Assembly: GCA_964016885.1 (NCBI GenBank)
Contig: OZ024750.1
Span: forward strand, 40,672,001-40,736,000
DNA from: Eledone cirrhosa
Lineage: Eukaryota
Direction of reading: 5' to 3'
DNA length: 64,000 bases
Positions within the stretch are counted from its first letter, which is position 1. The number at the start of each line of letters is the position of its first letter. Positions 18,730-64,000 of the stretch are shown piece by piece. A program made the position numbers and the translations under genes. The notes under the pieces were generated by a model. The model searched no databases. It had not been told where the DNA came from and worked only from the letters and a program-made list of their open reading frames with translations.

Positions 18730-19208
18730 CACTTTGGTATTTAAACTGACCATATCTGGCCAGAGTTCCCTCACCTCTTTCTGTTCAAACTGGCTGTAAC
18801 TGGCCACTCATACTTATGTTAAGGTATTGTTCTTAAAATAAATAATATCAAAATCTCATAGATTCGATATGTGAGATGATTATGTAAGGTAAAGCTTTTA
18901 TCATGAAAATACAATAGTATATATAGAGTAATGTAAATATTATGTGAGGTAAAGCCTTTACTGTGAAAATACAATAGTACATATAGAGTAATGTAGATGT
19001 TATGTGAGGTAAAGCCTTTACTGTAAAAATACAATAGTATATATAGAGTAATGTAAATGTTATATGTGATATGTGAGGTAAAGCCTTTACTGTGAAAATA
19101 CAATAGTATATATAGAGTAATGTAAATGTTATGTGAGATATTACGTGAGGTAAAGCCTTTACTGTGAAAATACAATAGTATATATAGAGTAATGTAGATG
19201 GTAAAAGG
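18730..19208 (-). mobile_element. Same MITE family, empty, degenerate TIRs, 60/72-bp units
   Basis: TTAA|CACTTTGGTATTTAAA ... GTAAAAGG|TTAA, about 5 units. Confidence 0.8.
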
Positions 19209-20232: not shown

Positions 20233-21142
20233 AAGTCCATAGAATCATTAGATAAAATGTATACAGTATTTCTTCTCCCAATCAGCATAAATCAACCACA
20301 CAAAAAAATTATTTAAACGAGGCTATAAGTTTAAAATATACTTATGAAGAAACAATAGATAAATGATATAGTTGTTTATCTGCGACTCACAGCTACAGAA
20401 AATTTACCTAGTATTTCTGATAGCCTGTAGAAATTGACTAGACATATAGTTAACTATACATAATTAGGTACAAAATCCAAGTTAGAAGAAAAAATGTACA
20501 TAAACATACCGAAATCATCAAAATATCTCTACCCCCGGCAGTTTCAGTCCATTTTTGGATATATCATATCTTGGATAAATCAACGAGGTTGGAAATCATC
20601 AGGAGATAAACTCAATTGGACAAAGATTTTTCTTACATGATCCCCGCCAGAAACGAATTCAAAATGGCTAAGAATCATCACGTTGCTAGTGGTCAAGGCA
20701 GAAAGTTTGTGATTGGTGCCTGTTGGCGAGTAGGCTGGTTGCTAGAAAGCGCAGCCGAATACTGCCTAAAGTTTTACTCAACCTTACAGGAGTATATAAA
20801 ATTTAAATGGTATATAGATATAAACTGGACAAAGCCATATATATATATATATAAGTTTTTGGCAACCATTCACAGTGTGGCTCAATGACGAATTAATTAA
20901 ATAATTAATAATCAGAGCAATATATAAAAAGTAAGTCCATAGAATCATTAGATAAAATATATACAGTATTTAGTATATATATAATATATAGAAAACCCGC
21001 CAGACAGTCCTATATGAGCAGGACAACCAATCTTGCCTCAAGTGGGAAAACTCCCGTCCAAACCCATGCAAGCGTAGAAGATGGACGTTGACGATGATGA
21101 TGATGATAATGATATATATTATATATATTATATATATCATTA

Positions 21143-21800
21143 TTGATAGACACATTTTTCAAATGCAGGAGGGCGCTATAGAAGTGGTGGATAGCTTCCG
21201 GTACCTAGGAGATCAGATTAGCATGGGAGGAGGGTGTTCCGAGGCCATAGTATCTAGAATAAGGACGGGTTGGAAGAAGTTTAGGGAGCTGCTTCCTCTG
21301 TTGACGAAGAAGGGTTTCTCCCTGCGTACGAAAGGCCGGTTGTATGATGCCTGTGTGAGGAGCGCGATGCTGCATGGTAGTGAGACATGGGCAGCAACTG
21401 CAGAGGATATGCGACGGCTGGAGAGAAATGAGGCAAGCATGCTCCGTTGGATGTGCAGTGTAAATGTGCGTGAGCGACCTGGCATAAATGTGTTGAGAGA
21501 GAAATTGTGTCTGAGAGGGATAGAATGTAGTGTACGGGAGAGGAGACTGAGGTGGTATGGACATGTGATGCGCATGGAGGATGACCGATGGGTGAAGAAG
21601 TGCCAGGAAATGCCAGTTGAAGGAAGATGTGGTAGAGGTAGACCACGGAAAACATGGGCGGAGGTGGTGAGAACAGACCTCAGATCATTGAAGCTCACGG
21701 TGGAGATGACGAGGGACCGTGACGAGTGGAGAGATGCTGTGCTGAATAAGACTCGTCCCACCCTTGCAAGCAGGGAAAAGCGGACATAAAATGATGATGA
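21143..21800 (+). mobile_element. 5'-truncated RTE-clade LINE fragment with (ATG)n tail
   Basis: FRYLG, LHGSETW, RRLRWYGHV and RGRPRKTW motifs of the RTE/BovB-like ORF C-terminus. Confidence 0.88.
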
Positions 21801-22614: not shown

Positions 22615-23056
22615 GTAAGTTATATTTATAACTGTTTTATTTTCATCTTAGCCCTTTCAGGACCACATTTCTAATGAAATACACTCTTTCAATTAGTTAA
22701 TGAACAATTTTGAGCGATTTATTAAAATTATCAATTATTTTATTACTGAGATAGTAACTTAACCCTTTACCAGTTACATTACTCTATATATACTATTGTA
22801 TTTTCACAGTAAAGGCTTTACCTCACATAATATCTCACATAACATCTCGTATACGAGAGACGTGTGTTGACGTGTGTGAACAAGCTCGGCTACCGAGTCG
22901 GATTTACTTACTCAAAAAGTGAGTTTTGATTAATTTTTTTATACTGTAATATACGTTAACCCCTTGCCTTGGTCGTCAAACTTTGAGTTTATTTATTTTC
23001 GCCCCTTTTTGGGGCGAATTTTCCAGTTAAAAATTTATTACGGCAAACTAATAGAA

Positions 23057-24784
23057 ATGGACGGAATTTTCACATCTCATCCTAACGTGAAAGCCACGCC
23101 CCCTAAGAAAGGTGATACAGAGAAGCTAGAAGCACAAGGCTCTAAGTCTTCCCTCCTGACTTCTGCAAAAGAAACATGGAACACGGAATTAAAAGAAAAA
23201 TTTGTAAAAATGGGTGAAAACCCAGAAAGTCACATAAACGCAGACAAAAACAACAACGACAATAACAGCAATAGTCACAACACCAACCAAGGAAAAAATA
23301 ACGATAACACCAAACAAAGCGAACCCACTACTGGTGCCTCCTTTGCACAGGCGGTCCGGAAAACACAAACCTGCAAGCAACTGGACATTACAACTCTGAG
23401 AGAAAAGATGAAGGAAGCGAAACAGTATGTAACTTTCAAAGAAGGAGGAGACTTCACAATCACCTCCCCACAAGAAATCAAAAGAGACACGACGCTAAGA
23501 ACGATATCTTTCAGAACAATTTCCAACATAACAAGGAAACCAACTCAATTATCCCAAAAAGAGATTGAGCTGGTCCTAAAAAATGTGTGGAGTGATATAT
23601 CGTTCATACAAAAAGGGCCACTCTATGGGAATATAACGGTCCTAATGAAGGATCAATTGACGGCCAGGAAATACTCTGTGGCACCAATTGTTTCCAAGCT
23701 ACATACATTTTTCCCCACATATTTAGGGAAAAGAACGCAGAAGATAAGGGTCTCCGGAATCCGGCCAAATGCATGCATTTCCTGGGTACTAACAGGATTT
23801 TTAGAAGACGAGGACGGAATCCTCTCAGTAGGAGAAGTCACCACAGACGTTTTCGGCGGTTTGAGCGTGGAGGTTCTGGTCCAAATGAGACCAGAACGAA
23901 TAGCTAGAATACCACAGAGGGTGTCCCTCGATGGAGAAACATTTATATATATTTCAGCCGAGGGTAGGAGGCCCATATGTTACTACTGTTCAAGCAGGGG
24001 TCATCTAAGGGCTGCTTGTCCTCAATTGACAAAAAAAAAGGCTCTTTTGCCTACACCCCACACACCACCACTGCCACCACCACCACCACCTCCACCACAA
24101 CAACAACAAAAACAACAGGGAAAAATAACACAAGACACGGCCCCACCCAAAACAACTCCCAAAACACACACAAATACAACAAAACCCCAAAATACACCAC
24201 TACCCGACAGCACGGACGAGGACCCAGCGGAAACGGCACCTAGTGACGAAGAGGGGGAACCCTTCCAACCTGTAAAAAGGAAAAAAAGAAAGCACCACTC
24301 GAACATAAACGAAACAAACACACAACCACCAACAAAAACAAAACAAACAGAACAAACAAAATCCGCCCCACCCCAAAACATAACACATACAACAAAACGT
24401 AAGCACACACAAGAACAACAAACAAACACAACACAAATAAAACAGTATACATACATTAACACAAATAACAAAGAACTAGTAAAAACAATACACAAAGACC
24501 CTTTGGTGGAAACTGAAGGGCAATTCTTTGCAAGCGCGGCCAACAAACCGCATTTAAAAATGATAAGACTCCCAATGGACACCTATGCAAAACTAAGAGA
24601 GAACTTTCCTGAGGACGTGGGGAAAACATGTACTCGACCCTATAACCGCGTCCTCTTGAAACGTTTCCCCACCCACACCTCACCAAACACCCCCACTCCA
24701 CCACAGAACAACACCCCACCAAACAACCCCTCCAATACGCCCATGGATATTGTGCAACCTGCTCCTCAGGAGCCGAACAGGTAG
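23057..24784 (+). CDS. Tx1-like ORF1 (gag-like, CX2CX4HX4C zinc knuckle)
   Basis: First in-frame ATG at 23057; CYYCSSRGHLRAAC knuckle followed by a P/T/Q-rich tail; stop codon 21 bp before ORF2. Confidence 0.88.
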   Translation: MDGIFTSHPNVKATPPKKGDTEKLEAQGSKSSLLTSAKETWNTELKEKFVKMGENPESHINADKNNNDNNSNSHNTNQGKNNDNTKQSEPTTGASFAQAVRKTQTCKQLDITTLREKMKEAKQYVTFKEGGDFTITSPQEIKRDTTLRTISFRTISNITRKPTQLSQKEIELVLKNVWSDISFIQKGPLYGNITVLMKDQLTARKYSVAPIVSKLHTFFPTYLGKRTQKIRVSGIRPNACISWVLTGFLEDEDGILSVGEVTTDVFGGLSVEVLVQMRPERIARIPQRVSLDGETFIYISAEGRRPICYYCSSRGHLRAACPQLTKKKALLPTPHTPPLPPPPPPPPQQQQKQQGKITQDTAPPKTTPKTHTNTTKPQNTPLPDSTDEDPAETAPSDEEGEPFQPVKRKKRKHHSNINETNTQPPTKTKQTEQTKSAPPQNITHTTKRKHTQEQQTNTTQIKQYTYINTNNKELVKTIHKDPLVETEGQFFASAANKPHLKMIRLPMDTYAKLRENFPEDVGKTCTRPYNRVLLKRFPTHTSPNTPTPPQNNTPPNNPSNTPMDIVQPAPQEPNR

Positions 24785-24805
24785 GTCCTTCCTCTTTTAA
24801 CCAAC

Positions 24806-37705: not shown

Positions 37706-38273
37706 CCCTTTAGCATTTAAACCAGCTGTATCCGGCCAGAATTTTTACACCTCTTTCTGTTTAAACCGACTGTAATCGGCTGCTCATACTGATGTTAAGG
37801 TATTGTTCTCAAAATAAATAGTAACAAAATCTCATAGATTCAATATCATGTGAGATAAAGCCTTTACCGTGAAAATACAATAGTTAATATAGAGTAATGT
37901 AAATGTTATGTGAGATATTATGTGAGGTAAAGCCTTTATTGTAAAAATATAATAGTAAATATAGAGTAATGTAAATGTTATGTGAGATATTATGTGAGGT
38001 AAAGACTTTACTGTGAAAATATAATAGTATATATAGAGTAATGTAAATGTTATGTGAGATATTATGTGAAGTAAAGCCTTTACTGTGAAAATACAATAGT
38101 AAATATAGAGTAATGTAAATGTTATGTGAGATATTATGTGAGGTAAAGCCTTTACTGTGAAAATACAATAGTATATATAGAGTAATGTAAATGTTATGTG
38201 AGATATTATGTAAGGTAAAGCCTTTACTGTGAAAATACAATAGTATATATAGAGTTACATAAACGGTAAAGGG
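37706..38273 (-). mobile_element. Same MITE family, empty, about 5-6 repeat units
   Basis: TTAA|CCCTTTAGCATTTA ... GGTAAAGGG|TTAA with an internal 72-bp array. Confidence 0.88.
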
Positions 38274-42444: not shown

Positions 42445-43190
42445 CCCTTTAGCAGTTACATTACTCTATATATACTATTGTATTTTCACAGTAAAGGCTT
42501 TACCTCACATAATATCTCACATAACATTTACATTATTCTATATATACTATTGTATTTTCACAGTAAAGGCTTTACCTCACATAATATCTCACATAACATT
42601 TACATTATTCTATATATACTATTGTATTTTCACAGTAAAGGTTTTACCTCACATAATATCTCACATAACATTTACATTACTCTATATATACTATTGTATT
42701 TTCACAGTAAAGGCTTTACCTCACATAATATCTCACATAACATTTACATTACTCTATATATACTATTGTATTTTCACAGTAAAGGCTTTAAACCTCACAT
42801 AATATCTCACATAACATTTACATTACTCTATATTTACTATTGTATTTTCACAGTAAAGGTTTTACCTCACATAATATCTCGCATAACATTTACATTACTC
42901 TATATATACTATTGTATTTTCACAGTAAAGGCTTTACCTCACAATATCTCGCATAACATTTACATTACTCTATATATACTATTGTATTTTCACAGTAAAG
43001 GCTTTACCTCACAAAATTATCTCACATAACATTTACATTACTCTATATATACTATTGTATTTTCACAGTAAAGGCTTTACCGCACAAAATTATCTCACAT
43101 AATATCGAATCTATGAGATTTTGATATTATTTATTTTGAGAACAACATCAGTATGAGTGGCCAGTTACGGCTGGTTTGAACAGAAAGAGG
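42445..43190 (+). mobile_element. Same MITE family, empty, about 9 repeat units, right end truncated
   Basis: TTAA|CCCTTTAGCAGTTA, then the 72-bp array, then the unique tail ending AAAGAGG|TTAA. Confidence 0.85.
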
Positions 43191-49213: not shown

Positions 49214-49507
49214 CCCTTTAGCATTTACATTACTCTATATATACTATTGTATTTTCGTGGTAAAGGCTTTATCTCACATAATATCTCACATAACATTTAC
49301 ATTACTCTATATATACTATTGTATTTTCGTGGTAAAGGCTTTATCTCAAAATAATTACTTCACATAATATGGAATCTATGAGATTTTGATGTTATTTATT
49401 TTGAGAACAATGCCTTAACTTCAGTATGAGTGGCCAGTTATGACTGGTTTGAACGGAAAAAGGTGAGAGAATTCTGGCCGGATATGGCTGGTTTAAATGC
49501 TAAAGGG
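49214..49507 (+). mobile_element. TTAA-flanked piggyBac-type MITE with internal 72-bp tandem repeat (empty, about 2 units)
   Basis: TTAA|CCCTTTAGCATTTA ... TAAATGCTAAAGGG|TTAA: perfect 14-bp TIRs and TTAA TSD; non-coding. Confidence 0.9.
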
Positions 49508-50383: not shown

Positions 50384-51315
50384 CACTGTATTTTTACCTA
50401 TGGAGGTCTAATAATTTATATAAATGGTTTAATGATCCAGCCACCATAGTGTTCTCACCCATGACAGAGACAGATCATACATCTGAAGGAGTTTCTTTTT
50501 TGTCCCCTCTCTGACGAGGCTTATTTGACTTTAATAAAACCTGCTCCTAGTCCAAGTGGCACCCACTTCATGTGGCACTCATGGCACGTGCCATGCTTGC
50601 TATACCCTAGTTACGGCTCTGTATTGTACCTATAATTCAAAGGGTCAGCTCATTGAGTGTATTGTACCTGTAATTCAAAGGGCCAGCCTTGTAAAACACT
50701 GGATCATATTGACTCTTTCTGAGATTTATGTTAATACAACTAAGACTGTCAATTGTCTTAACTTGTAACTATATAAATCCACAAAACCCAAGCCAGACAT
50801 AAACCAAACATCTACACAACCCCTTGAACCAACCCCTCTAAAAGTGCTTCTGGTTCTATAAAATAAAAACCACCCATTTTAAACGGTTCCTATTTAACCC
50901 TTTAGCATTTAAACCGGCCATATCTAGCCGGAATTTTCTCACTTTTTTCTGTTCAAACTGGCCTTAACTGGCCACTCATACTGATGTTAAGGTATTGTAC
51001 TTAACATAAATAATATCAAAATCTCATAGATTCGATAATGTGTGAGATATTATATGAAATAAAGCTTTTACCACAAAAATACAATAGTATGTATAGAGTA
51101 ATGTAAATATTATGTGAGATATTATGTGAGGTAAAGCCTTTACTGTGAAAATACAATAGTATATATAGAGTAATGTAAATGTTATGTGAGATATTATGTG
51201 AGGTAAAGCTTTTACTGTGAAAATACAATAGTATATATAGAGTAATGTAAATGTTATATGAGATATTATGTGAAGTAAAGCCTTTACTGTGAAAATACAA
51301 TAGTATATATAGAGT

Positions 51316-54300
51316 GGTTTCTTTATTTGCCACTAGGGCACAAAAGGTAGGGACAGATACAAGGGGGGAAGTTTACATATAATTAACGAGTACAAAAATA
51401 TAACAATGAAATAACAACAACAAACGAAGTCCTCAATAGGGAGGGGGCATTAACATGGGTCGCACACACCCCGGAAAAAATGTGTAACCCTTCTCCTCAG
51501 GAGCACAAAGAGTAGGTGCTTCCCTCGTCTCCTCTTTTTCCTCTTCTTTCACCTACAGGCTGATATAGAGAGAAGACCCATTCACTCTGGCCATTCTCCC
51601 TACTTTCACCCACCTTTCATAAAACTTGCTGGGGTAGAGCATCTCTCTCTCCATTCTGATCCTTCTTTTAAAATGGTATTTGAAAAAGGGGACCAGTTGT
51701 TGGCCGGAGAGAAAGGTGTCTGACCTCAGCCCTTTCAGCCTCGTCCACCATACAACTTCTTTAGCCATGGCTACCACACAGAGAAAAACCGCCTCTCCTT
51801 CGTTTTTGAAAGGGGGAGGCGGTTTGATCGTGACAATGGACTCGGTGGTCAACCGGATTGGTCCCACCCTCGACAGTAGTCGTTCCACATAGCCCCACAG
51901 GTCAGCAATGCCTGGGCAGTGTACGAATGCGTGCGCAACGGTTTCGTCATCATGCACGCATCTCGGACAGATCTTATTCAAAGGATCTCTACCCAGGCTC
52001 CCATGCCTGTGGAGCTTGTCTCGAACGGGTAGAGCCCCTCGGTAGCACTGCCAAGCCAGGGACTTTTGGAAGTTGTCCATCGGTCCAGGACCAAACGTCC
52101 TACCGAACAGACTGGCCAGTTCATCTTCCTCCATGCCTAGAGCTTCTCCGAGAGCATCGTCGCACCTGCTGCGTACCAACCCTCTATAGAATGTCGACGT
52201 GGAGTCTCCACTGATTGCCGGGTCCGCTTTCCAGAGGGCCGTGAGCACCTAGGCACATTCAATGTGCCAGTCGCCCACTTTTCTCGGTCTTTGCTTGACC
52301 CAGGATTGCAGCTCGGTGAGCGAGACGAGTCTGGGAAAGGCTCGCCTCACAAACGGGGCCCACACCGGTTGACCGGTGAGGAATACCTGGAGGTGCCGTA
52401 GCCTTAATGCGTGTTTACGCATCTGTAGCCACGGCATCCCCAGCCCTCCTTTCGAAGGGTGTTGACAGCAGATGGATCTCCTCACCAAAGGGGTCCGCTT
52501 GTTCCAAAGAAATTGGAACAGCGCGCACTCCATTTTGGCGAGTCTTTTCACTGGGCAAGGCACGACGGTCAAGCGGTAGTAGATGACGGATGCTATATAA
52601 GTATTCGCCACCTCCGCTCGACCTTTCAGGGATAGTTTGCACTGGGCCCACTTCTGGGTGAGTGCAAACACCCTGGCCGTTACCTCGTTCCAGTTTTTCT
52701 CCACCTGGAGGTCTGGTCCGAACCAGACCCCAAGCAGCTTCACCGGGCCCTCCGTCCAGCGTCCGACGACGTCGTTGGAGGGCATCGGTTTGCCTCTCCA
52801 TGTTCCGAGTTGCAAACCGACGGACTTGTCCCGGTTCAGCTTGGCTCCTGTAAACCTTTCATATTCCTCCAGTAAGGTGCCGATCTCACCGATTTGTGAG
52901 GTTTTCGACACCATTACTGTCACGTCATCGGCGTAGGCCGACGCCGCTTTCTGCAATCCCGGTTCCAAAGGGATGCCCTGCAACCGCTCCAACTTCCGCA
53001 GTAGTGGCTCAAGAGCCAGCACATACAGTAGGGAGGAGAGAGGGCATCCCTGTCGGATGGATCGCATGATTTGGAACGGCTCCGAGAGGTGGCCGTTCAC
53101 CTTGACCCTTGAGCAGACGTTGCTGCTGTGCATCGCAGCAATCCAACCCCTGAAAACGGGTCCGAAGCCTGCCGCCGCGAGCACCGCATCCAGGTAACGA
53201 TGGTCAACCCTATCGAAAGCTTTAGATTGATCCAAGTTGATCAGGGCCCCACCAAAGCCGGGTTCATTCCCTACCCTCTCTATGATGTATCGCATAAGGT
53301 GGAGATTGTCGTGAATGGACCTGGACGGGATTGCGCATGTCTGCGCTTCTCCCACCAGGTTTCCAACGACAAGCGCCAACCTCTTCGCTAACACCTTGGC
53401 CAAAATCTTTAACTCTGTATTTAGCAGAGTTATGGGTCTGAAGTTACTTATGTCATCCCCCTTGTTCTCATCCTTCCTCACCAGCATAACTACGCCCTTG
53501 GTCACAGAACTGGGAATTCTCCCGTTCTGCTGCCAGTTGCAGTAGACCGCTTCGAGGATATCGGAGAACAAGTCCGGCATCGCTACATATAGCTCGTATG
53601 GTAGACCATCGAGACCCGGGGATTTGCGTTTGCCGCATTGGCTCAGCGCCGCCCCTATCTCAGCAGCTGAAATCGTCCTTTCGCAGGACTTCGCGTCCGA
53701 GAGGCGCGGCAGACCGTCGAGGTATGGATTGAAATCCATAGTCTCACCCGGCGCGCCGCCCCTCTCGAACAGTCGTGCAAAGTGCCGCTGAAAGGCCGCA
53801 CACATCTGCCCAGGTTCAAGGATCACACGCCCATCCTGGTCCTTCAAAGACCGAATCGTGGACTTGTTCCCACTTTTTGCCTCTGTCACTCGGGCCCAGC
53901 TCACAGCTTTGGCTCCCTCATTACCCAGAGCACGTATTTTACTTCTGACAACGCAGCCTTCATGCTTCACCTCAAAGAACTGGTCTAAGGCCATTCTTGA
54001 TGCCAGCACGCCGGCTACATTGCCACTCCTAATCGCCTCTTCTACTCTATCTACTAATTCCCTTTCCGTCTTGATCCTATCCCTTGCTAATTCCTGACTA
54101 AAACCTATCGATTCTATTCTAATTGCTCTCTTAAGAGAGCTCCACCACCTGTTGTTGACAATTGCCCCTGTCAAACTCTGCTTAACTAACGTGCTAATCC
54201 GTTTACTGTAAGCTTTGCTTCTCGGTAAGGACAAGTTCAGTTTCCAGTAACCGGGTCCCTGTCTATGGGTTCTATCAAGGTTGGCTATGCAGGTCACTAA

Positions 54301-56838
54301 CTTGTGATCCGAATAGTCAACCATGAACATTTTTGGACAGCTAAATGTGTCCCTATCGTTCTCTCTAACTAGGACCCTATCTAGGTACGACCTAGATGTT
54401 CCACTGCGATTGGTCCACGTCCATAGTGGTACAGTCGGAAAATCTAGTCGATATCTATCGGCCAGGTCAAATCGGCCGATTAACCTTTTGAGGCTTTTAC
54501 ACCCCCCTCTATTGGCACATGCCCCTACATAGTCCCAACGTGCATCCAGGATACCATTCCAGTCCCCCACTAAAAGCAAGGAGCGGGACGTTCCCAGAAA
54601 AGTTTCCAGACGTTGGAAGTATTCCGGCCGCGCTGCCCAAAAAGGGGCGTACACAGCTATTAGTCTAAGGGCTCCACTTTCACTACTGCCGACGTCTAAA
54701 ACCACCAGTCGACCCTCCGGGTCCAGGTGCACCTTCTGTATGGCGAGGCCCAGGTATTTTCGCAGCAGAACGACAACTCCACCCCCACCCCCCGGTTGAC
54801 AGAGAGATGCGAAGATCTCAAAGTCGTCGAAGAGGGGCGCCAGTTGGTGCTCGCTGCTGATCCTGGACTCGCAAATAGCCATTACATCCATTCTATGCGA
54901 CCTGAGATCGTTTAAAAGTTTGCCTTGTTTCCAAGACAGTCCCAGGCCACGTACATTCAGACACCCAACTCTTATATCAGCCATGTTGGTTAAAAGAGGA
55001 AGGACCTACCTGTTCGGCTCCTGAGGAGCAGGTTGCACAATATCCATGGGCGTATTGGAGGGGTTGTTTGGTGGGGTGTTGTTCTGTGGTGGAGTGGGGG
55101 TGTTTGGTGAGGTGTGGGTGGGGAAACGTTTCAAGAGGACGCGGTTATAGGGTCGAGTACATGTTTTCCCCACGTCCTCAGGAAAGTTCTCTCTTAGTTT
55201 TGCATAGGTGTCCATTGGGAGTCTTATCATTTTTAAATGCGGTTTGTTGGCCGCGCTTGCAAAGAATTGCCCTTCAGTTTCCACCAAAGGGTCTTTGTGT
55301 ATTGTTTTTACTAGTTCTTTGTTATTTGTGTTAATGTATGTATACTGTTTTATTTGTGTTGTGTTTGTTTGTTGTTCTTGTGTGTGCTTATGTTTTGTTG
55401 TATGTGTTATGTTTTGGGGTGGGGCGGATTTTGTTTGTTCTGTTTGTTTTGTTTTTGTTGGTGGTTGTGTGTTTGTTTCGTTTATGTTCGAGTGGTGCTT
55501 TCTTTTTTTCCTTTTTACAGGTTGGAAGGGTTCCCCCTCTTCGTCACTAGGTGCCGTTTCCGCTGGGTCCTCGTCCGTGCTGTCGGGTAGTGGTGTATTT
55601 TGGGGTTTTGTTGTATTTGTGTGTGTTTTGGGAGTTGTTTTGGGTGGGGCCGTGTCTTGTGTTATTTTTCCGTGTTGTTTTTGTTGTTGTTGTTGTGGTG
55701 GTGGTGGTGGCGGTGGTGGTGTGTGGGGTGTAGGCAAAAGAGCCTTTTTTTTTTGTCAATTGAGGACAAGCAGCCCTTAGATGACCCCTGCTTGAACAGT
55801 AGTAACATATGGGCCTCCTACCCTCGGCTGAAATATATATAAATGTTTCTCCATCGAGGGACACCTTCTGTGGTATTCTAGCTATTCGTTCTGGTCTCAT
55901 TTGGACCAGAACCTCCACGCTCAAACCGCCGAAAACGTCTGTGGTGACTTCTCCTACTGAGAGGATTCCGTCCTCGTCTTCTAAAAATCCTGTTAGTACC
56001 CAGGAAATGCATGCATTTGGCCGGATTCCGGAGACCCTTATCTTCTGCGTTCTTTTCCCTAAATATGTGGGGAAAAATGTATGTAGCTTGGAAACAATTG
56101 GTGCCACAGAGTATTTCCTGGCCGTCAATTGATCCTTCATTAGGACCGTTATATTCCCATAGAGTGGCCCTTTTTGTATGAACGATATATCACTCCACAC
56201 ATTTTTTAGGACCAGCTCAATCTCTTTTTGGGATAATTGAGTTGGTTTCCTTGTTATGTTGGAAATTGTTCTGAAAGATATCGTTCTTAGCGTCGCGTCT
56301 CTTTTGATTTCTTGTGGGGAGGTGATTGTGAAGTCTCCTCCTTCTTTGAAAGTTACATACTGTTTCGCTTCCTTCATCTTTTCTCTCAGAGTTGTAATGT
56401 CCAGTTGCTTGCAGGTTTGTGTTTTCCGGACCGCCTGTGCAAAGGAAGCACCAGTAGTGGGTTCGCTTTGTTTGGTGTTATCGTTATTTTTTCCTTGGTT
56501 GGTGTTGTGACTATTGCTGTTATTGTCGTTGTTTTTGTCTACGTTTATGTGACTTTCTGGGTTTTCACCCATTTTTACAAATTTTTCTTTTAATTCCGTG
56601 TTCCATGTTTCTTTTGCAGAAGTCAGGAGGGAAGACTTAGAGCCTTGTGCTTCTAGCTTCTCTGTATCACCTTTCTTAGGGGGCGTGGCTTTCACGTTAG
56701 GATGAGATGTGAAAATTCCGTCCATTTCTATTAGTTTGCCGTAATAAATTTTAAACTGGAAAATTCGCCCCAAAAAGGGGCGAAAATGAATAAACTCAAA
56801 GTTTGACGACCAAGGCAAGGGGTTAACGTATATTACAG

Positions 56839-56874
<36 letters not shown>

Positions 56875-56957
56875 CAAAACTCACTTTTTGAGTAAGTAAA
56901 TCCGACTCGGTAGCCAAGCTTGTTCACACACGTCAACACACGTCTCTCGTATACGAG
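51316..56957 (-). mobile_element. Tx1-like LINE copy 2 (full length, defective)
   Basis: Near-identical to copy 1. ORF1 is frameshifted in an A-run near 55745-55754; ORF2 has a CAG>TAG stop at 52249-52251. Confidence 0.93.
51553..54984 (-). pseudogene. ORF2 of copy 2 with premature stop
   Basis: 911-aa and 231-aa segments in the same frame, split by TAG after HIECA. Confidence 0.9.
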
Positions 56958-57022
56958 ATGTTATGTGAGATATTATGTGAGGTAAAGCCTTTACTGTGAA
57001 AATACAATAGTATATATAGAGT

Positions 57023-60000
57023 GGTTTCTTTATTTGCCACTAGGGCACAAAAGGTAGGGACAGATACAAGGGGGGAAGTTTACATATAATTAACGAGTAC
57101 AAAAATATAACAATGAAATAACAACAACAAACGAAGTCCTCAATAGGGAGGGGGCATTAACATGGGTCGCACACACCCCGGAAAAAATGTGTAACCCTTC
57201 TCCTCAGGAGCACAAAGAGTAGGTGCTTCCCTCGTCTCCTCTTTTTCCTCTTCTTTCACCTACAGGCTGATATAGAGAGAAGACCCATTCACTCTGGCCA
57301 TTCTCCCTACTTTCACCCACCTTTCATAAAACTTGCTGGGGTAGAGCACCTCTCTCTCCATTCTGATCCTTCTTTTAAAATGGTATTTGAAAAAGGGGAC
57401 CAGTTGTTGGCCGGAGAGAAAGGTGTCTGACCTCAGCCCTTTCAGCCTCGTCCACCATACAACTTCTTTAGCCATGGCTACCACACAGAGAAAAACCGCC
57501 TCTCCTTCGTTTTTGAAAGGGGGAGGCGGTTTGATCGTGACAATGGACTCGGTGGTCAACCGGATTGGTCCCACCCTCGACAGTAGTCGTTGCACATAGC
57601 CCCACAGGTCAGCAATGCCTGGGCAGTGTACGAATGCGTGCGCAACGGTTTCGTCATCATGCACGCATCTCGGACAGATCTTATTCAAAGGATCTCTACC
57701 CAGGCTCCCATGCCTGTGGAGCTTGTCTCGAACAGGTAGAGCCCCTCGGTAGCACTGCCAAGCCAGGGACTTTTGGAAGTTGTCCATCGGTCCAGGGCCA
57801 AACGTCCTACCGAACAGACTGGCCAGTTCATCTTCCTCCATGCCTAGAGCTTCTCCGAGAGCATCGTCGCACCTGCTGCGTACCAACCCTCTATAGAATG
57901 TCGAGGTGGAGTCTCCACTGATTGCCGGGTCCGCTTTCCAGAGGGCCGTGAGCGCCTGGGCACATTCAATGTGCCAGTCGCCCACTTTTCTCGGTCTTTG
58001 CTTGACCCAGGATTGCAGCTCGGTGAGCGAGACGAGTCTAGGAAAGGCTCGCCTCACAAACGGGGCCCACACCGGTTGACCGGTGAGGAATACCTGGAGG
58101 TGCCGTAGCCTTAATGCGTGTTTACGCATCTGTAGCCACGGCATCCCCAGCCCTCCTTTCGAAGGGTGTTGACAGCAGATGGATCTCCTCACCAAAGGGG
58201 TTCGCTTGTTCCAAAGAAATTGGAACAGCGCGCACTCCATTTTGGCGAGTCTTTTCACTGGGCAAGGCACGACGGTCAAGCGGTAGTAGATGACGGATGC
58301 TATATAAGTATTCGCCACCTCCGCTCGACCTTTCAGGGATAGTTTGCACTGGGCCCACTTCTGGGTGAGTGCAAACACCCTGGCCGTTACCTCGTTCCAG
58401 TTTTTCTCCACCTGGAGGTCTGGTCCGAACCAGACCCCAAGCAGCTTCACCGGGCCCTCCGTCCAGCGTCCGACGACGTCGTTGGAGGGCATCGGTTTGC
58501 CTCTCCATGTTCCGAGTTGCAAACCGACGGACTTGTCCCGGTTCAGCTTGACTCCTGTAAACCTTTCATATTCCTCCAGTAAGGTGCCGATCTCACCGAT
58601 TTGCGAGGTTTTCGACACCATTACTGTCACGTCATCGGCGTAGGCCGACGCCGCTTTCTGCAATCCCGGTTCCAAAGGGATGCCCTGCAACCGCTCCAAC
58701 TTCCGCAGTAGTGGCTCAAGAGCCAGCACATACAGTAGGGAGGAGAGAGGGCATCCCTGTCGGATGGATCGCATGATTTGGAACGGCTCCGAGAGGTGGC
58801 CGTTCACCTTGACCCTTGAGCAGACGTTGCTGCTGTGCATCGCAGCAATCCAACCCCTGAAAACGGGTCCGAAGCCTGCCGCCGCGAGCACCGCATCCAG
58901 GTAACGATGGTCAACCCTATCGAAAGCTTTAGATTGATCCAAGTTGATCAGGGCCCCACCAAAGCCGGGTTCATTCCCTACCCTCTCTATGATGTATCGC
59001 ATAAGGTGGAGATTGTCGTGAATGGACCTGGACGGGATTGCGCATGTCTGCGCTTCTCCCACCAGGTTTCCAACGACAAGCGCCAACCTCTTCACTAACA
59101 CCTTGGCCAAAATCTTTAACTCTGTATTTAGCAGAGTTATGGGTCTGAAGTTACTTATGTCATCCCCCTTGTTCTCATCCTTCCTCACCAGCATAACTAC
59201 GCCCTTGGTCACAGAACTGGGAATTCTCCCGTTCTGCTGCCAGTTGCAGTAGACCGCTTCGAGGATATCGGAGAACAAGTCCGGCATCGCTACATATAGC
59301 TCGTATGGTAGACCATCGAGACCCGGGGATTTGCGTTTGCCGCATTGGCTCAGCGCCGCCCCTATCTCAGCAGCTGAAATCGTCCTTTCGCAGGACTTCG
59401 CGTCCGAGAGGCGCGGCAGACCGTCGAGGTATGGATTGAAATCCATAGTCTCACCCGGCGCGCCGCCCCTCTCGAACAGTCGTGCAAAGTGCCGCTGAAA
59501 GGCCGCACACATCTGCCCAGGTTCAAGGATCACACGCCCATCCTGGTCCTTCAAAGACCGAATCGTGGACTTGTTCCCACTTTTTGCCTCTGTCACTCGG
59601 GCCCAGCTCACAGCTTTGGCTCCCTCATTACCCAGAGCACGTATTTTACTCCTGACAACGCAGCCTTCATGCTTCACCTCAAAGAACTGGTCTAAGGCCA
59701 TTCTTGATGCCAGCACGCCGGCTACATTGCCACTCCTAATCGCCTCTTCTACTCTATCTACTAATTCCCTTTCCGTCTTGTTCCTATCCCTTGCTAATTC
59801 CTGACTAAAACCTATCGATTCTATTCTAATTGCTCTCTTAAGAGAGCTCCACCACCTGTTGTTGACAATTGCCCCTGTCAAACTCTGCTTAACTAACGTG
59901 CTAATCCGTTTACTGTAAGCTTTGCTTCTCGGTAAGGACAAGTTCAGCTTCCAGTAACCGGGTCCCTGTCTATGGGTTCTATCAAGGTTGGCTATGCAGG

Positions 60001-62558
60001 TCACTAACTTGTGATCCGAATAGTCAACCATGAACATTTTTGGACAGCTAAATGTGTCCCTATCGTTCTCTCTAACTAGGACCCTATCTAGGTACGACCT
60101 AGATGTTCCACTGCGATTGGTCCACGTCCATAGTGGTACAGTCGGAAAATCTAGTCGATATCTATCGGCCAGGTCAAATCGGCCGATTAACCTTTTGAGG
60201 CTTTTACACCCCCCTCTATTGGCACATGCCCCTACATAGTCCCAACGTGCATCCAGGATACCATTCCAGTCCCCCACTAAAAGCAAGGAGCGGGACGTTC
60301 CCAGAAAAGTTTCCAGACGTTGGAAGTATTCCGGCTGCGCTGCCCAAAAAGGGGCATACACAGCTATTAGTCTAAGGGCTCCACTTTCACTACTGCCGAC
60401 GTCTAAAACCACCAGTCGACCCTCCGGGTCAAGGTGCACCTTCTGTATGGCGAGGCCCAGGTGTTTTTGCAGCAGAACGACAACTCCACCCCCACCCCCC
60501 GGTTGACAGAGAGATGCGAAGATCTCAAAGTCGTCGAAGAGGGGCGCCAGTTGGTGCTCGCTGCTGATCCTGGACTCGCAAATAGCCATTACATCCATTC
60601 TATGCGACCTGAGATCGTTTAAAAGTTTGCCTTGTTTCCAAGACAGTCCCAGGCCACGTACATTCAGACACCCAACTCTTATATCAGCCATGTTGGTTAA
60701 AAGAGGAAGGACCTACCTGTTCGGTTCCTGAGGAGCAGGTTGCACAATATCCATGGGCGTATTGGAGGGGTTGTTTGGTGGGGTGTTGTTCTGTGGTGGA
60801 GTGGGGGTGTTTGGTGAGGTGTGGGTGGGGAAACGTTTCAAGAGGACGCGGTTATAGGGTCGAGTACATGTTTTCCCCACGTCCTCAGGAAAGTTCTCTC
60901 TTAGTTTTGCATAGGTGTCCATTGGGAGTCTTATCATTTTTAAATGCGGTTTGTTGGCCGCGCTTGCAAAGAATTGCCCTTCAGTTTCCACCAAAGGGTC
61001 TTTGTGTATTGTTTTTACTAGTTCTTTGTTATTTGTGTTAATGTATGTATACTGTTTTATTTGTGTTGTGTTTGTTTGTTGTTCTTGTGTGTGCTTACGT
61101 TTTGTTGTATGTGTTATGTTTTGGGGTGGGGCGGATTTTGTTTGTTCTGTTTGTTTTGTTTTTGTTGGTGGTTGTGTGTTTGTTTCGTTTATGTTCGAGT
61201 GGTGCTTTCTTTTTTTTTCCTTTTTACAGGTTGGAAGGGTTCCCCCTCTTCGTCACTAGGTGCCGTTTCCGCTGGGTCCTCGTCCGTGCTGTCGGGTAGT
61301 GGTGTATTTTGGGGTTTTGTTGTACTTGTGTGTGTTTTGGGAGTTGTTTTGGGTGGGGCCGTGTCTTGTGTTATTTTTCCGTGTTGTTTTTGTTGTTGTA
61401 GTGGTGGTGGTGGTGGTGGTGGTGGTGGCGGTGGTGGTGTGTGGGGTGTAGGCAAAAGAGCCTTTTTTTTTGTCAATTGAGGACAAGCAGCCCTTAGATG
61501 ACCCCTGCTTGAACAGTAGTAACATATGGGCCTCCTACCCTCGGCTGAAATATATATAAATGTTTCTCCATCGAGGGACACCTTCTGTGGTATTCTAGCT
61601 ATTCGTTCTGGTTTCATTTGGACCAGAACCTCCACGCTCAAACCGCCGAAAACGTCTGTGGTGACTTCTCCTACTGAGAGGATTCCGTCCTCGTCTTCTA
61701 AAAATCCTGTTAGTACCCAGGAAATGCATGCATTTGGCCGGATTCCGGAGACCCTTATCTTCTGCGTTCTTTTCCCTAAATATGTGGGGAAAAATGTATG
61801 TAGCTTGGAAACAATTGGTGCCACAGAGTATTTCCTGGCCGTCAATTGATCCTTCATTAGGACCGTTATATTCCCATAGAGTGGCCCTTTTTGTATGAAC
61901 GATATATCACTCCACACATTTTTTAGGACCAGCTCAATCTCTTTTTGGGATAATTGAGTTGGTCTCCTTGTTATGTTGGAAATTGTTCTGAAAGATATCG
62001 TTCTTAGCGTCGTGTCTCTTTTGATTTCTTGTGGGGAGGTGATTGTGAAGTCTCCTCCTTCTTTGAAAGTTACATACTGTTTCGCTTCCTTCATCTTTTC
62101 TCTCAGAGTTGTAATGTCCAGTTGCTTGCAGGTTTGTGTTTTCCGGACCGCCTGTGCAAAGGAGGCACCAGTAGTGGGTTCGCTTTGTTTGGTGTTATCG
62201 TTATTTTTTCCTTGGTTGGTGTTGTGACTATTGCTGTTATTGTCGTTGTTGTTTTTGTCTGCGTTTATGTGACTTTCTGGGTTTTCACCCATTTTTACAA
62301 ATTTTTCTTTTAATTCCGTGTTCCATGTTTCTTTTGCAGAAGTCAGGAGGGAAGACTTAGAGCCTTGTGCTTCTAGCTTCTCTGTATCACCTTTCTTAGG
62401 GGGCGTGGCTTTCACGTTAGGATGAGATGTGAAAATTCCGTCCATTTCTATTAGTTTGCCGTAATAAATTTTAAACTGGAAAATTCGCCCCAAAAAGGGG
62501 CGAAAATGAATAAACTCAAAGTTTGACGACCAAGGCAAGGGGTTAACGTATATTACAG

Positions 62559-62594
<36 letters not shown>

Positions 62595-62677
62595 CAAAAC
62601 TCACTTTTTGAGTAAGTAAATCCGACTCGGTAGCCAAGCTTGTTCACACACGTCAACACACGTCTCTCGTATACGAG
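57023..62677 (-). mobile_element. Tx1-like LINE copy 3 (ORF2 intact, ORF1 frameshifted)
   Basis: ORF2 of 1143 aa intact; ORF1 has +1 A in the run near 61210-61218 (real or sequencing homopolymer error). Confidence 0.93.
57260..60691 (-). CDS. Intact ORF2 of copy 3 (APE-RT-CCHC)
   Basis: Same motifs as copy 1; 6-bp deletion relative to copy 1 (SDAKS vs SDAEAKS). Confidence 0.92.
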   Translation of the reverse strand: MADIRVGCLNVRGLGLSWKQGKLLNDLRSHRMDVMAICESRISSEHQLAPLFDDFEIFASLCQPGGGGGVVVLLQKHLGLAIQKVHLDPEGRLVVLDVGSSESGALRLIAVYAPFWAAQPEYFQRLETFLGTSRSLLLVGDWNGILDARWDYVGACANRGGCKSLKRLIGRFDLADRYRLDFPTVPLWTWTNRSGTSRSYLDRVLVRENDRDTFSCPKMFMVDYSDHKLVTCIANLDRTHRQGPGYWKLNLSLPRSKAYSKRISTLVKQSLTGAIVNNRWWSSLKRAIRIESIGFSQELARDRNKTERELVDRVEEAIRSGNVAGVLASRMALDQFFEVKHEGCVVRSKIRALGNEGAKAVSWARVTEAKSGNKSTIRSLKDQDGRVILEPGQMCAAFQRHFARLFERGGAPGETMDFNPYLDGLPRLSDAKSCERTISAAEIGAALSQCGKRKSPGLDGLPYELYVAMPDLFSDILEAVYCNWQQNGRIPSSVTKGVVMLVRKDENKGDDISNFRPITLLNTELKILAKVLVKRLALVVGNLVGEAQTCAIPSRSIHDNLHLMRYIIERVGNEPGFGGALINLDQSKAFDRVDHRYLDAVLAAAGFGPVFRGWIAAMHSSNVCSRVKVNGHLSEPFQIMRSIRQGCPLSSLLYVLALEPLLRKLERLQGIPLEPGLQKAASAYADDVTVMVSKTSQIGEIGTLLEEYERFTGVKLNRDKSVGLQLGTWRGKPMPSNDVVGRWTEGPVKLLGVWFGPDLQVEKNWNEVTARVFALTQKWAQCKLSLKGRAEVANTYIASVIYYRLTVVPCPVKRLAKMECALFQFLWNKRTPLVRRSICCQHPSKGGLGMPWLQMRKHALRLRHLQVFLTGQPVWAPFVRRAFPRLVSLTELQSWVKQRPRKVGDWHIECAQALTALWKADPAISGDSTSTFYRGLVRSRCDDALGEALGMEEDELASLFGRTFGPGPMDNFQKSLAWQCYRGALPVRDKLHRHGSLGRDPLNKICPRCVHDDETVAHAFVHCPGIADLWGYVQRLLSRVGPIRLTTESIVTIKPPPPFKNEGEAVFLCVVAMAKEVVWWTRLKGLRSDTFLSGQQLVPFFKYHFKRRIRMEREVLYPSKFYERWVKVGRMARVNGSSLYISL

Positions 62678-62742
62678 ATGTTATGTGAGATATTATGTGA
62701 GGTAAAGCCTTTACTGTGAAAATACAATAGTATATATAGAGT

Positions 62743-64000
62743 GGTTTCTTTATTTGCCACTAGGGCACAAAAGGTAGGGACAGATACAAGGGGGGAAGTT
62801 TACATATAATTAACGAGTACAAAAATATAACAATGAAATAACAACAACAAACGAAGTCCTCAATAGGGAGGGGGCATTAACATGGGTCGCACACACCCCG
62901 GAAAAAATGTGTAACCCTTCTCCTCAGGAGCACAAAGAGTAGGTGCTTCCCTCGTCTCCTCTTTTTCCTCTTCTTTCACCTACAGGCTGATATAGAGAGA
63001 AGACCCATTCACTCTGGCCATTCTCCCTACTTTCACCCACCTTTCATAAAACTTGCTGGGGTAGAGCACCTCTCTCTCCATTCTGATCCTTCTTTTAAAA
63101 TGGTATTTGAAAAAGGGGACCAGTTGTTGGCCGGAGAGAAAGGTGTCTGACCTCAGCCCTTTCAGCCTCGTCCACCATACAACTTCTTTAGCCATGGCTA
63201 CCACACAGAGAAAAACCGCCTCTCCTTCGTTTTTGAAAGGGGGAGGCGGTTTGATCGTGACAATGGACTCGGTGGTCAACCGGATTGGTCCCACCCTCGA
63301 CAGTAGTCGTTGCACATAGCCCCACAGGTCAGCAATGCCTGGGCAGTGTACGAATGCGTGCGCAACGGTTTCGTCATCATGCACGCATCTCGGACAGATC
63401 TTATTCAAAGGATCTCTACCCAGGCTCCCATGCCTGTGGAGCTTGTCTCGAACAGGTAGAGCCCCTCGGTAGCACTGCCAAGCCAGGGACTTTTGGAAGT
63501 TGTCCATCGGTCCAGGGCCAAACGTCCTACCGAACAGACTGGCCAGTTCATCTTCCTCCATGCCTAGAGCTTCTCCGAGAGCATCGTCGCACCTGCTGCA
63601 TACCAACCCTCTATAGAATGTCGAGGTGGAGTCTCCACTGATTGCCGGGTCCGCTTTCCAGAGGGCCGTGAGCGCCTGGGCACATTCAATGTGCCAGTCG
63701 CCCACTTTTCTCGGTCTTTGCTTGACCCAGGATTGCAGCTCGGTGAGCGAGACGAGTCTAGGAAAGGCTCGCCTCACAAACGGGGCCCACACCGGTTGAC
63801 CGGTGAGGAATACCTGGAGGTGCCGTAGCCTTAATGCGTGTTTACGCATCTGTAGCCACGGCATCCCCAGCCCTCCTTTCGAAGGGTGTTGACAGCAGAT
63901 GGATCTCCTCACCAAAGGGGTTCGCTTGTTCCAAAGAAATTGGAACAGCGCGCACTCCATTTTGGCGAGTCTTTTCACTGGGCAAGGCACGACGGTCAAG
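62743..64000 (-). mobile_element. Tx1-like LINE copy 4 (3' part; continues beyond window)
   Basis: Same 3' UTR and ORF2 C-terminus (62980-63999). Confidence 0.92.

Follow-up and report, generated by a model that had tools for sequence, protein, structure and literature searches.

A 64,000-nt stretch of the Eledone cirrhosa genome, hereafter called the window, raises the question of how much of the sequence in front of a retrotransposon belongs to the receiving site and how much has arrived with the element. A LINE is present four times in the window, once on the plus strand (E1) and three times on the minus strand (A, B and C, the last of which runs past the window end). The 65-mers at 22781-22845 (+), 56958-57022 (-) and 62678-62742 (-) are identical and each is followed by the element start CTCGTATACGAG. 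On the 3' side, the unit 28481-28545 differs from them at unit position 55 (TATCACAC), a difference shared by the next unit 28553-28617, and the unit 51251-51315 carries two substitutions, at positions 42 and 58. From these observations, all of which recur here, a sequence-only reading had argued against a 65-bp TSD and had proposed that either the transcript carries a copy of the target at its 5' end and rebuilds the site upstream at each insertion, or every insertion deletes the 7 bp TTACATT. Its caution that identity with the MITE consensus is weak proof was well founded, as 36/127 5' flanks and 66/348 ordinary neighbouring units equal the reference unit. Identity with the reference being this common, the window alone cannot decide, and the three 65-mers are not fully independent because the copies of the cluster lie together in the element tree.

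The element is, to judge from its sequence, a young site-specific LINE of the L1 superfamily, 5.6 kb in length with ~300 genome copies, and probably belongs to the Tx1 clade, a placement derived from its domain build, the ORF1 motif and the sequence-specific target. ORF1 is a separate reading frame with a nucleic-acid-binding motif, a zinc knuckle of the pattern CX2CX4HX4C, as is characteristic for the L1/Tx1 superfamily; its Pfam search gave 0 matches. ORF2 matches PF03372, PF00078 and PF13966, of which PF13966 alone is marginal (28.6 versus a cut-off of 27.5). The best solved relative of ORF2 in the PDB is human L1 ORF2p (E 2.4e-53, residues 4-857), whereas R2 proteins are matched over the RT portion only (E 3.1e-23), which places the protein nearer to L1 than to R2. 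A homologue search with the LINE protein recovered 84 proteins, 82 of them unnamed and two distant plant proteins, with a named Tx1 reference absent from this set. The ATG of ORF2 is situated 21 bases past the ORF1 stop and in-frame with ORF1 (window 24782-24808).

In the genome of 3.0 Gb, the first 21 bases of the element have 302 exact matches and the 3'-end 21-mer has 261. The 94 whole copies compared diverge from the column majority by a median of 0.28%, and 53 of them retain an open ORF2 frame of at least 1140 aa; the copies in the window differ by 0.5-0.6% (E1-A 29/5620, A-B 30/5641). The 5' end is missing at 11 of the first 100 listed 3' ends, paired by coordinates or by sequence, so that ~89% keep it. 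A T-run at element base ~82-88 differs in length, with 7 T in E1 and 28 T in A and B (window 56842-56869 and 62562-62589). The 3' ends of several diverged copies (L246, L254, L257-L265) read AAGAAATT or AAGAAATC, those of young copies AAGAAACC; the ATT ending found among them equals the end of the TTACATT target spacer.

Table 1. Features of the window around the plus-strand copy E1 and the minus-strand tandem cluster (positions in the window).
Feature	Position	Strand	Remarks
Host MITE left end	22759..22773	+	TTAA + terminal inverted repeat CCCTTTA(C)CA
TTACATT spacer ahead of first 72-bp unit	22774..22780	+	
Upstream unit of E1, local part, positions 1-40	22781..22820	+	Genome-wide variation like ordinary units
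Target-derived arm of E1, positions 41/43-65, donor-type	22821..22845	+	Boundary between 37 and 43; putative RNA 5' end
LINE copy E1, full-length, 5635 bp	22846..28480	+	No poly(A) tail, AATAAA just before 3' end
ORF1 of E1, 575 aa	23057..24784	+	CCHC zinc knuckle at residue 308
ORF2 of E1, 1145 aa	24806..28243	+	APE-type endonuclease, reverse transcriptase, zf-RVT
Downstream local units of E1, from nick ACTCTA	28481..28676	+	Not a duplicate of the 5' flank
Host MITE right end, tandem cluster	50894..50911	-	TIR + TTAA
Downstream unit array of copy A	51035..51315	-	
Copy A, full-length	51316..56957	-	ORF1 frameshifted, stop in ORF2
Minimal carried arm of copy A, 23 nt, positions 43-65	56958..56980	-	
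Junction unit A/B, positions 1-42	56981..57022	-	Doubles as 3' flank of copy B
Copy B, full-length	57023..62677	-	ORF2 open, ORF1 frameshifted
Junction unit C/B	62678..62742	-	Arm at 62678-62700
Copy C, 3' part	62743..64000	-	Continues beyond window

Each of the two identical minus-strand 65-mers in the window (Table 1) is shared by two tandem neighbours, bordering one at its 5' end and the next at its 3' end. The tandem run reaches five copies past the window (G000:C10:40723316-40752437, window 51316 onward; L090, L099, L045, L046), the third and fifth of which are near-identical with the same upstream variant, which suggests a local duplication of ~12 kb, or an assembly duplicate, and not five independent insertions. 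Elsewhere (G000:C1:4.22-4.26 Mb; L095-L098), one MITE array contains six full-length copies, one pair of which is split by a single 65-mer. Five host MITE copies in the window are empty, with 1-9 units each (16909, 18865-19190, 37831-38255, 42463-43104 and 49232-49368), some of these units having 3- or 12-bp deletions, and another common family of LINEs bears a (CAT)n tail (window 20992-21789 and 32067-32831).

The target repeat unit measures 72 bp, the 65-mer plus TTACATT, and is arrayed inside a TTAA-bounded MITE with the inverted repeats CCCTTTAGCATTTA (66 left and 45 right ends). TT precedes AACCCTTTAG in 64/66 left ends per column and AA follows AAAGGGTT in 43-44/45 right ends, termini that are those expected of a non-autonomous piggyBac-type element with TIRs starting with CCC. 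The insertion point is TTACATT^ACTCTA, with ACTCTA directly after 124 of the 126 distinct 3' ends and ACTCTATATATAC after 112, and the exact 33-bp empty junction occurs 22,311 times in the genome. In the 3' flanks, positions 1-8 of the first downstream unit are unusually conserved (0.3% versus 0.9-2.0%), which may reflect recognition by the endonuclease or the transport of a few bases of the target on the 3' end of the RNA.

Junctions were collected from the loci L001-L220 and the window, with 128 distinct 5' junctions, 126 3' junctions and 106 pairs as the outcome. The loci comprise top BLAST matches, first-listed pattern matches and deliberately chosen unpaired 3' ends, a non-random sample in which local duplicates were kept. 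Units were recognisable in 127/128 5' junctions, one with a 1-base deletion being left out, and on both sides in 105/106 pairs; neighbouring units within the sample served as the control for positions 43-65.

Upon comparison with these neighbours, the upstream 65-mer falls into two parts. At positions 1-42, substitutions amount to 147/5321 (2.76%) in the 5' flanks versus 149/4728, 155/5197 and 131/4643 (2.8-3.2%) in neighbouring units, while at positions 43-65 the 5' flanks have 7/2908 (0.24%) versus 40/2481, 61/2673 and 61/2477 (1.6-2.5%). The block 43-65 is perfect in 119/127 5' flanks versus 186/348 neighbouring units (Fisher p 2e-18), and the perfect 23-mer is found at 268/302 exact 5' ends genome-wide. 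Thus, the expectation set against the idea of a travelling target, that the flanks would vary as much as ordinary units, holds at positions 1-42 and fails at 43-65. Variants of the next upstream unit recur in the 5' flank in 53/149 cases at positions 1-42, about the rate of ordinary neighbours, and in 0/40 at 43-65, where ordinary neighbours share variants in 11/56 and 9/44 cases. Individual arrays display the same pattern. At L183, 13/13 other units displayed have an extra T inside the arm region that the 5' flank lacks; at L093, T41 and T46 are present in 9/9 other complete units and both are absent from the 5' flank, which retains five local variants up to position 28; and at L203, T44 is present in 12/13 other units and not in the 5' flank. 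Array variants missing from the arm indicate replacement of the local sequence and not choice of the target.

By likelihood, the change from local to donor sequence is located between positions 36 and 43. Position 41 is non-C at one junction among ~297 genome-wide, and as this single odd junction is a three-repeat unit, the arm probably comprises at least 25 nt. The junctions thus assign 23-29 nt to the donor-type arm and the first ~36-42 nt of the 65-mer to the local upstream unit. The divergence of the arm, 0.24%, is comparable to that of the element itself (0.45% in bases 1-36, median 0.28%). T42 occurs in 5/93 5' flanks versus 7/611 other units and is mostly absent from the local upstream units; its carriers are not clustered in the element tree, and no arm variant was traced along an element lineage. 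At L084 and L225 the junction is 12 bp shorter, compatible with a short local unit or with pairing at the other internal repeat of the unit; the T at position 65 is missing from a single exact 5' end genome-wide. The loci L232 and L246 (the latter at G000:C2:401.85 Mb), considered as a bare 23-nt arm on foreign DNA, were rejected as evidence for the arm length because an antisense LINE fragment bearing a (CAT)n tail has later inserted between positions 39 and 43. Equally left out of the arm analysis were L111-L113 (G000:C1:10.99 and 11.03 Mb), where an LTR-like element with two similar ends of ~270 bp abuts a perfect 65-mer before a full-length copy; the 65-mer behind non-MITE DNA was assigned to an LTR-like insertion or rearrangement. 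L112 has in addition a lone 150-bp element 5' end upstream.

The claim that the target travels with the element hence stands for the last 23-29 nt and not for the whole 65-mer. With the first ~36-42 nt local, the unit count is most likely unchanged by an insertion and TTACATT is lost, so that carried piece and 7-bp deletion, presented by the sequence-only reading as alternatives, are each partly true and likely one event. The idea that the site is rebuilt upstream at each insertion had to be abandoned, since the array already contains the upstream TTACATT^ACTCTA and the site that is nicked is lost.

The 5' junction is uniform, with the same small deletion throughout: the 7-bp TTACATT is absent from all full-length copies, and TTACATT joined to the element start is found in 0 copies genome-wide with up to one mismatch allowed. 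Inspection of 5'-truncated copies, as had been suggested, revealed another type of junction, which lacks the arm and keeps the TTACATT spacer in 9 of the 12 copies seen without a 5' end. The spacer-keeping copies are preceded by 1, 2, 2, 6, 6, 9, 10, 14 or 16 bases of the unit start, with microhomology of 1-3 bases in five of the nine. L166 and L169 are located at the first unit of their MITE, and their preceding bases read as true short TSDs; at L168 the 16 preceding bases carry an upstream-type variant, and truncated copies inside arrays may involve deletion of most of a unit. Upstream of these copies, the arm sequence is mutated, 12 bp shorter or absent in 6/9 and perfect in 3/9 versus 119/127 for full-length copies (p 3e-5); as six copies have no intact arm upstream, the nick is independent of the arm sequence. 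Among the remaining three, L163 has the 65-boundary without the element 5' end, through an internal deletion or a template jump, L180 is joined at position 41 with four extra bases and L170 has an unrelated repeat upstream. The truncated copy L067 (G000:C25:6.55 Mb) combines a 14-bp duplication with an inversion of its 5' segment, as known from twin priming in L1.

Explanations without a carried arm, or with the entire 65-mer carried, have to be weighed against these observations. A true long TSD, of 65 bp or of ~40 bp adjoining a carried arm, would account for the 12/105 pairs in which the 5' 65-mer equals its own 3' unit, but this number falls to 2/95 where either differs from the reference, and variants of the 3' unit recur in the 5' flank in 1/14 cases at positions 1-16 and 45/127 at 1-36, the level of ordinary neighbours; the probability that we leave to it is next to nil. 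Scarcely better placed, and very hard to believe, is the transport of the whole 65-mer with no TSD and one unit added per insertion. The three identical window flanks fit such transport, as does the finding that carriers of G23 resemble one another in element sequence more than expected at random (p 0.009), a result from one of nine tests that includes a local cluster; among the nine shared variants tested, no convincing co-segregation of flank variants with the element tree was found. Against it, positions 1-42 are as variable as in ordinary units and have variants in common with their neighbours, and at positions 1-36 a flank is no closer to the flank of the nearest-related element (2.01 mismatches) than to a random one (2.14), with 1.44 mismatches to its own downstream unit.

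Gene conversion between copies after insertion could likewise have spread ~25 bp into the 5' flank and homogenised the arm, for which the copies, >99% alike and in local clusters of shared lineage, would offer the opportunity. A matching effect is lacking on the 3' side, though, where the first downstream unit is normal from position 9 (1.5% at 9-16, 5.1% at 17-30), the boundary is sharp and already present in the youngest copies, and the uniform 7-bp loss is left unexplained, so that we regard conversion as very improbable. The fixed junction, the missing TTACATT and the local positions 1-42 are all accounted for by a pure target deletion, in which nothing is carried, the protein recognising a perfect sequence at positions 43-65 and cleaving the second strand 7 bp upstream of the first. 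Such recognition, though, demands a rare consensus unit exactly upstream where all others differ (13/13 at L183, 9/9 at L093), and six of the nine spacer-keeping truncated copies inserted where the supposedly recognised sequence is mutated, 12 bp shorter or absent; pure deletion is therefore improbable, if somewhat less so than conversion.

What can be read from the junctions, fixed ends on both sides with the 5' one 7 bp upstream of the 3' one, a donor block of 23-29 nt and local sequence before this block, makes it quite probable that the RNA carries a short target arm, through which the cDNA end anneals to the homologous upstream target and is attached precisely at its 5' end in an R2-like manner. 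In such a cycle, the APE domain would nick the bottom strand at GAGT/AATG and prime reverse transcription at a fixed RNA 3' end. With a transcript starting at approximately unit position 37-43, the cDNA would end in target sequence 7 bp short of the nick and could pair with the upstream unit at positions ~41-65; the target in between, TTACATT included, would be trimmed, the donor arm would overwrite the local arm and the annealed cDNA end would prime second-strand synthesis. The 7-bp deletion would represent a one-time ancestral junction copied in each cycle, and insertion at adjacent unit boundaries would create head-to-tail copies separated by one 65-mer. Reverse transcription that stops early would produce no arm, leaving the spacer with 1-16 bp of the next unit, which reads as a short TSD. 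An arm-duplicated junction was found neither among ~150 junctions viewed, about half of the copies, nor by a directed search (4 matches, none of this type), and the same junctions include no copy with the arm on non-target DNA.

How the RNA 5' end might be formed was approached by structure. Rfam gave sub-threshold matches only for a ribozyme at the 5' end (E 1.4 and 2.3), and a home-made descriptor for HDV-like ribozymes, lacking validation by a positive control, gave 0 matches. A 121-nt segment folds with z -2.9 into a hairpin that has position 43 as its first base and in which the arm is paired with element bases 9-34, with predicted stem pair probabilities of 0.8-0.97; when 5611 windows are ranked by their pairing with the arm, element bases 12-35 come 12th. 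Yet a fold just as good was obtained in ~35% of 1000 trials in which either side was dinucleotide-shuffled, and the predicted pairing may be only a matter of CA-rich against GU-rich composition. As a source of the RNA 5' end, a promoter, internal or flanking, is no less likely than the hairpin structure. That R2-style homology-directed 5' attachment has arisen independently in an APE-type LINE whose RNA 5' end is produced by a non-HDV structure is a speculation that we consider unlikely; if true, the hairpin could be a new self-cleaving or protein-processed RNA, half of it built from target sequence.

The endonuclease of R2 elements is restriction-like. In springtail, silkmoth and earwig, R2 elements with a ribozyme that cleaves upstream in the 28S gene have 9-36 nt of upstream target on the RNA, and all springtail R2 junctions have a 7-bp deletion propagated via a cDNA-target heteroduplex; models of this kind have been hypothesised for L1 and R1, too (the sections considered of Eickbush et al., 2013, PMC3774820). 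As far as these sections describe R2, the likeness consists in target sequence on the RNA, here deduced from junctions, uniform 5' junctions and a propagated fixed deletion, whereas the present LINE differs by its APE domain, two ORFs and a polymorphic MITE repeat as the target, in place of 28S rDNA and an HDV-like ribozyme. A tandem duplication of the arm, seen in a minority of R2 junctions, was not found for the LINE in the ~150 junctions viewed. By analogy, the element works like an R2 with upstream-cleaved RNA, yet is not an R2.

Tx1L makes a TSD of ~23 bp, whereas the full-length copies described here are without TSD. On the other hand, Xenopus Tx1L, a member of the Tx1 clade that inserts into the non-autonomous piggyBac family Tx1D, resembles the present element, in what the excerpts used describe, as an APE-RT LINE whose sequence-specific site lies within a non-autonomous DNA transposon of the TTAA type (PMC4494074; PMC1950540). 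The crocodilian Tx1-Mar and SINEU target Mariner-N4_AMi with TSDs of ~16 bp, and for these, the excerpted text reports tandem copies that sandwich the target, proposed transcription from flanking target DNA and 5' target extensions (Kojima, 2015, PMC4494074). On this account, the targeting of a DNA transposon, tandem copies around the target and a 5' target extension are shared, but the extensions of Tx1-Mar and SINEU are long and sporadic, while a short fixed arm is present here in nearly all full-length copies. Human L1 has in common with the present LINE the domain order, a T/AA-type nick and, in truncated copies, a short TSD with microhomology; the LINE departs from it by the missing poly(A) tail, a strict site, ~89% of copies that keep the 5' end and full-length copies without TSD. 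A carried target arm in an element of the Tx1/L1 clade was not found in the partial Tx1/APE and R2 literature covered, outside of which the main Tx1 papers fall.

The attachment of the 5' end and the priming of the second strand constitute the least understood step of LINE retrotransposition. The 28S rDNA target of R2 is nearly invariant, so that the boundary between donor and target is unreadable from genomes; here, the target is polymorphic, and its >22,000 exact empty sites together with ~300 young insertions narrow this boundary down to a few bases. Apparent long TSDs in tandem targets can equally be mosaics. One and the same family would achieve two outcomes, an arm-guided precise junction with loss of 7 bp and, when truncated, microhomology joining with a short TSD. 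As a site-specific APE-type LINE with ~89% of copies full-length and ORF2 open in 53/94, the element offers a tractable model and a possible tool for precise insertion outside the R2 clade.
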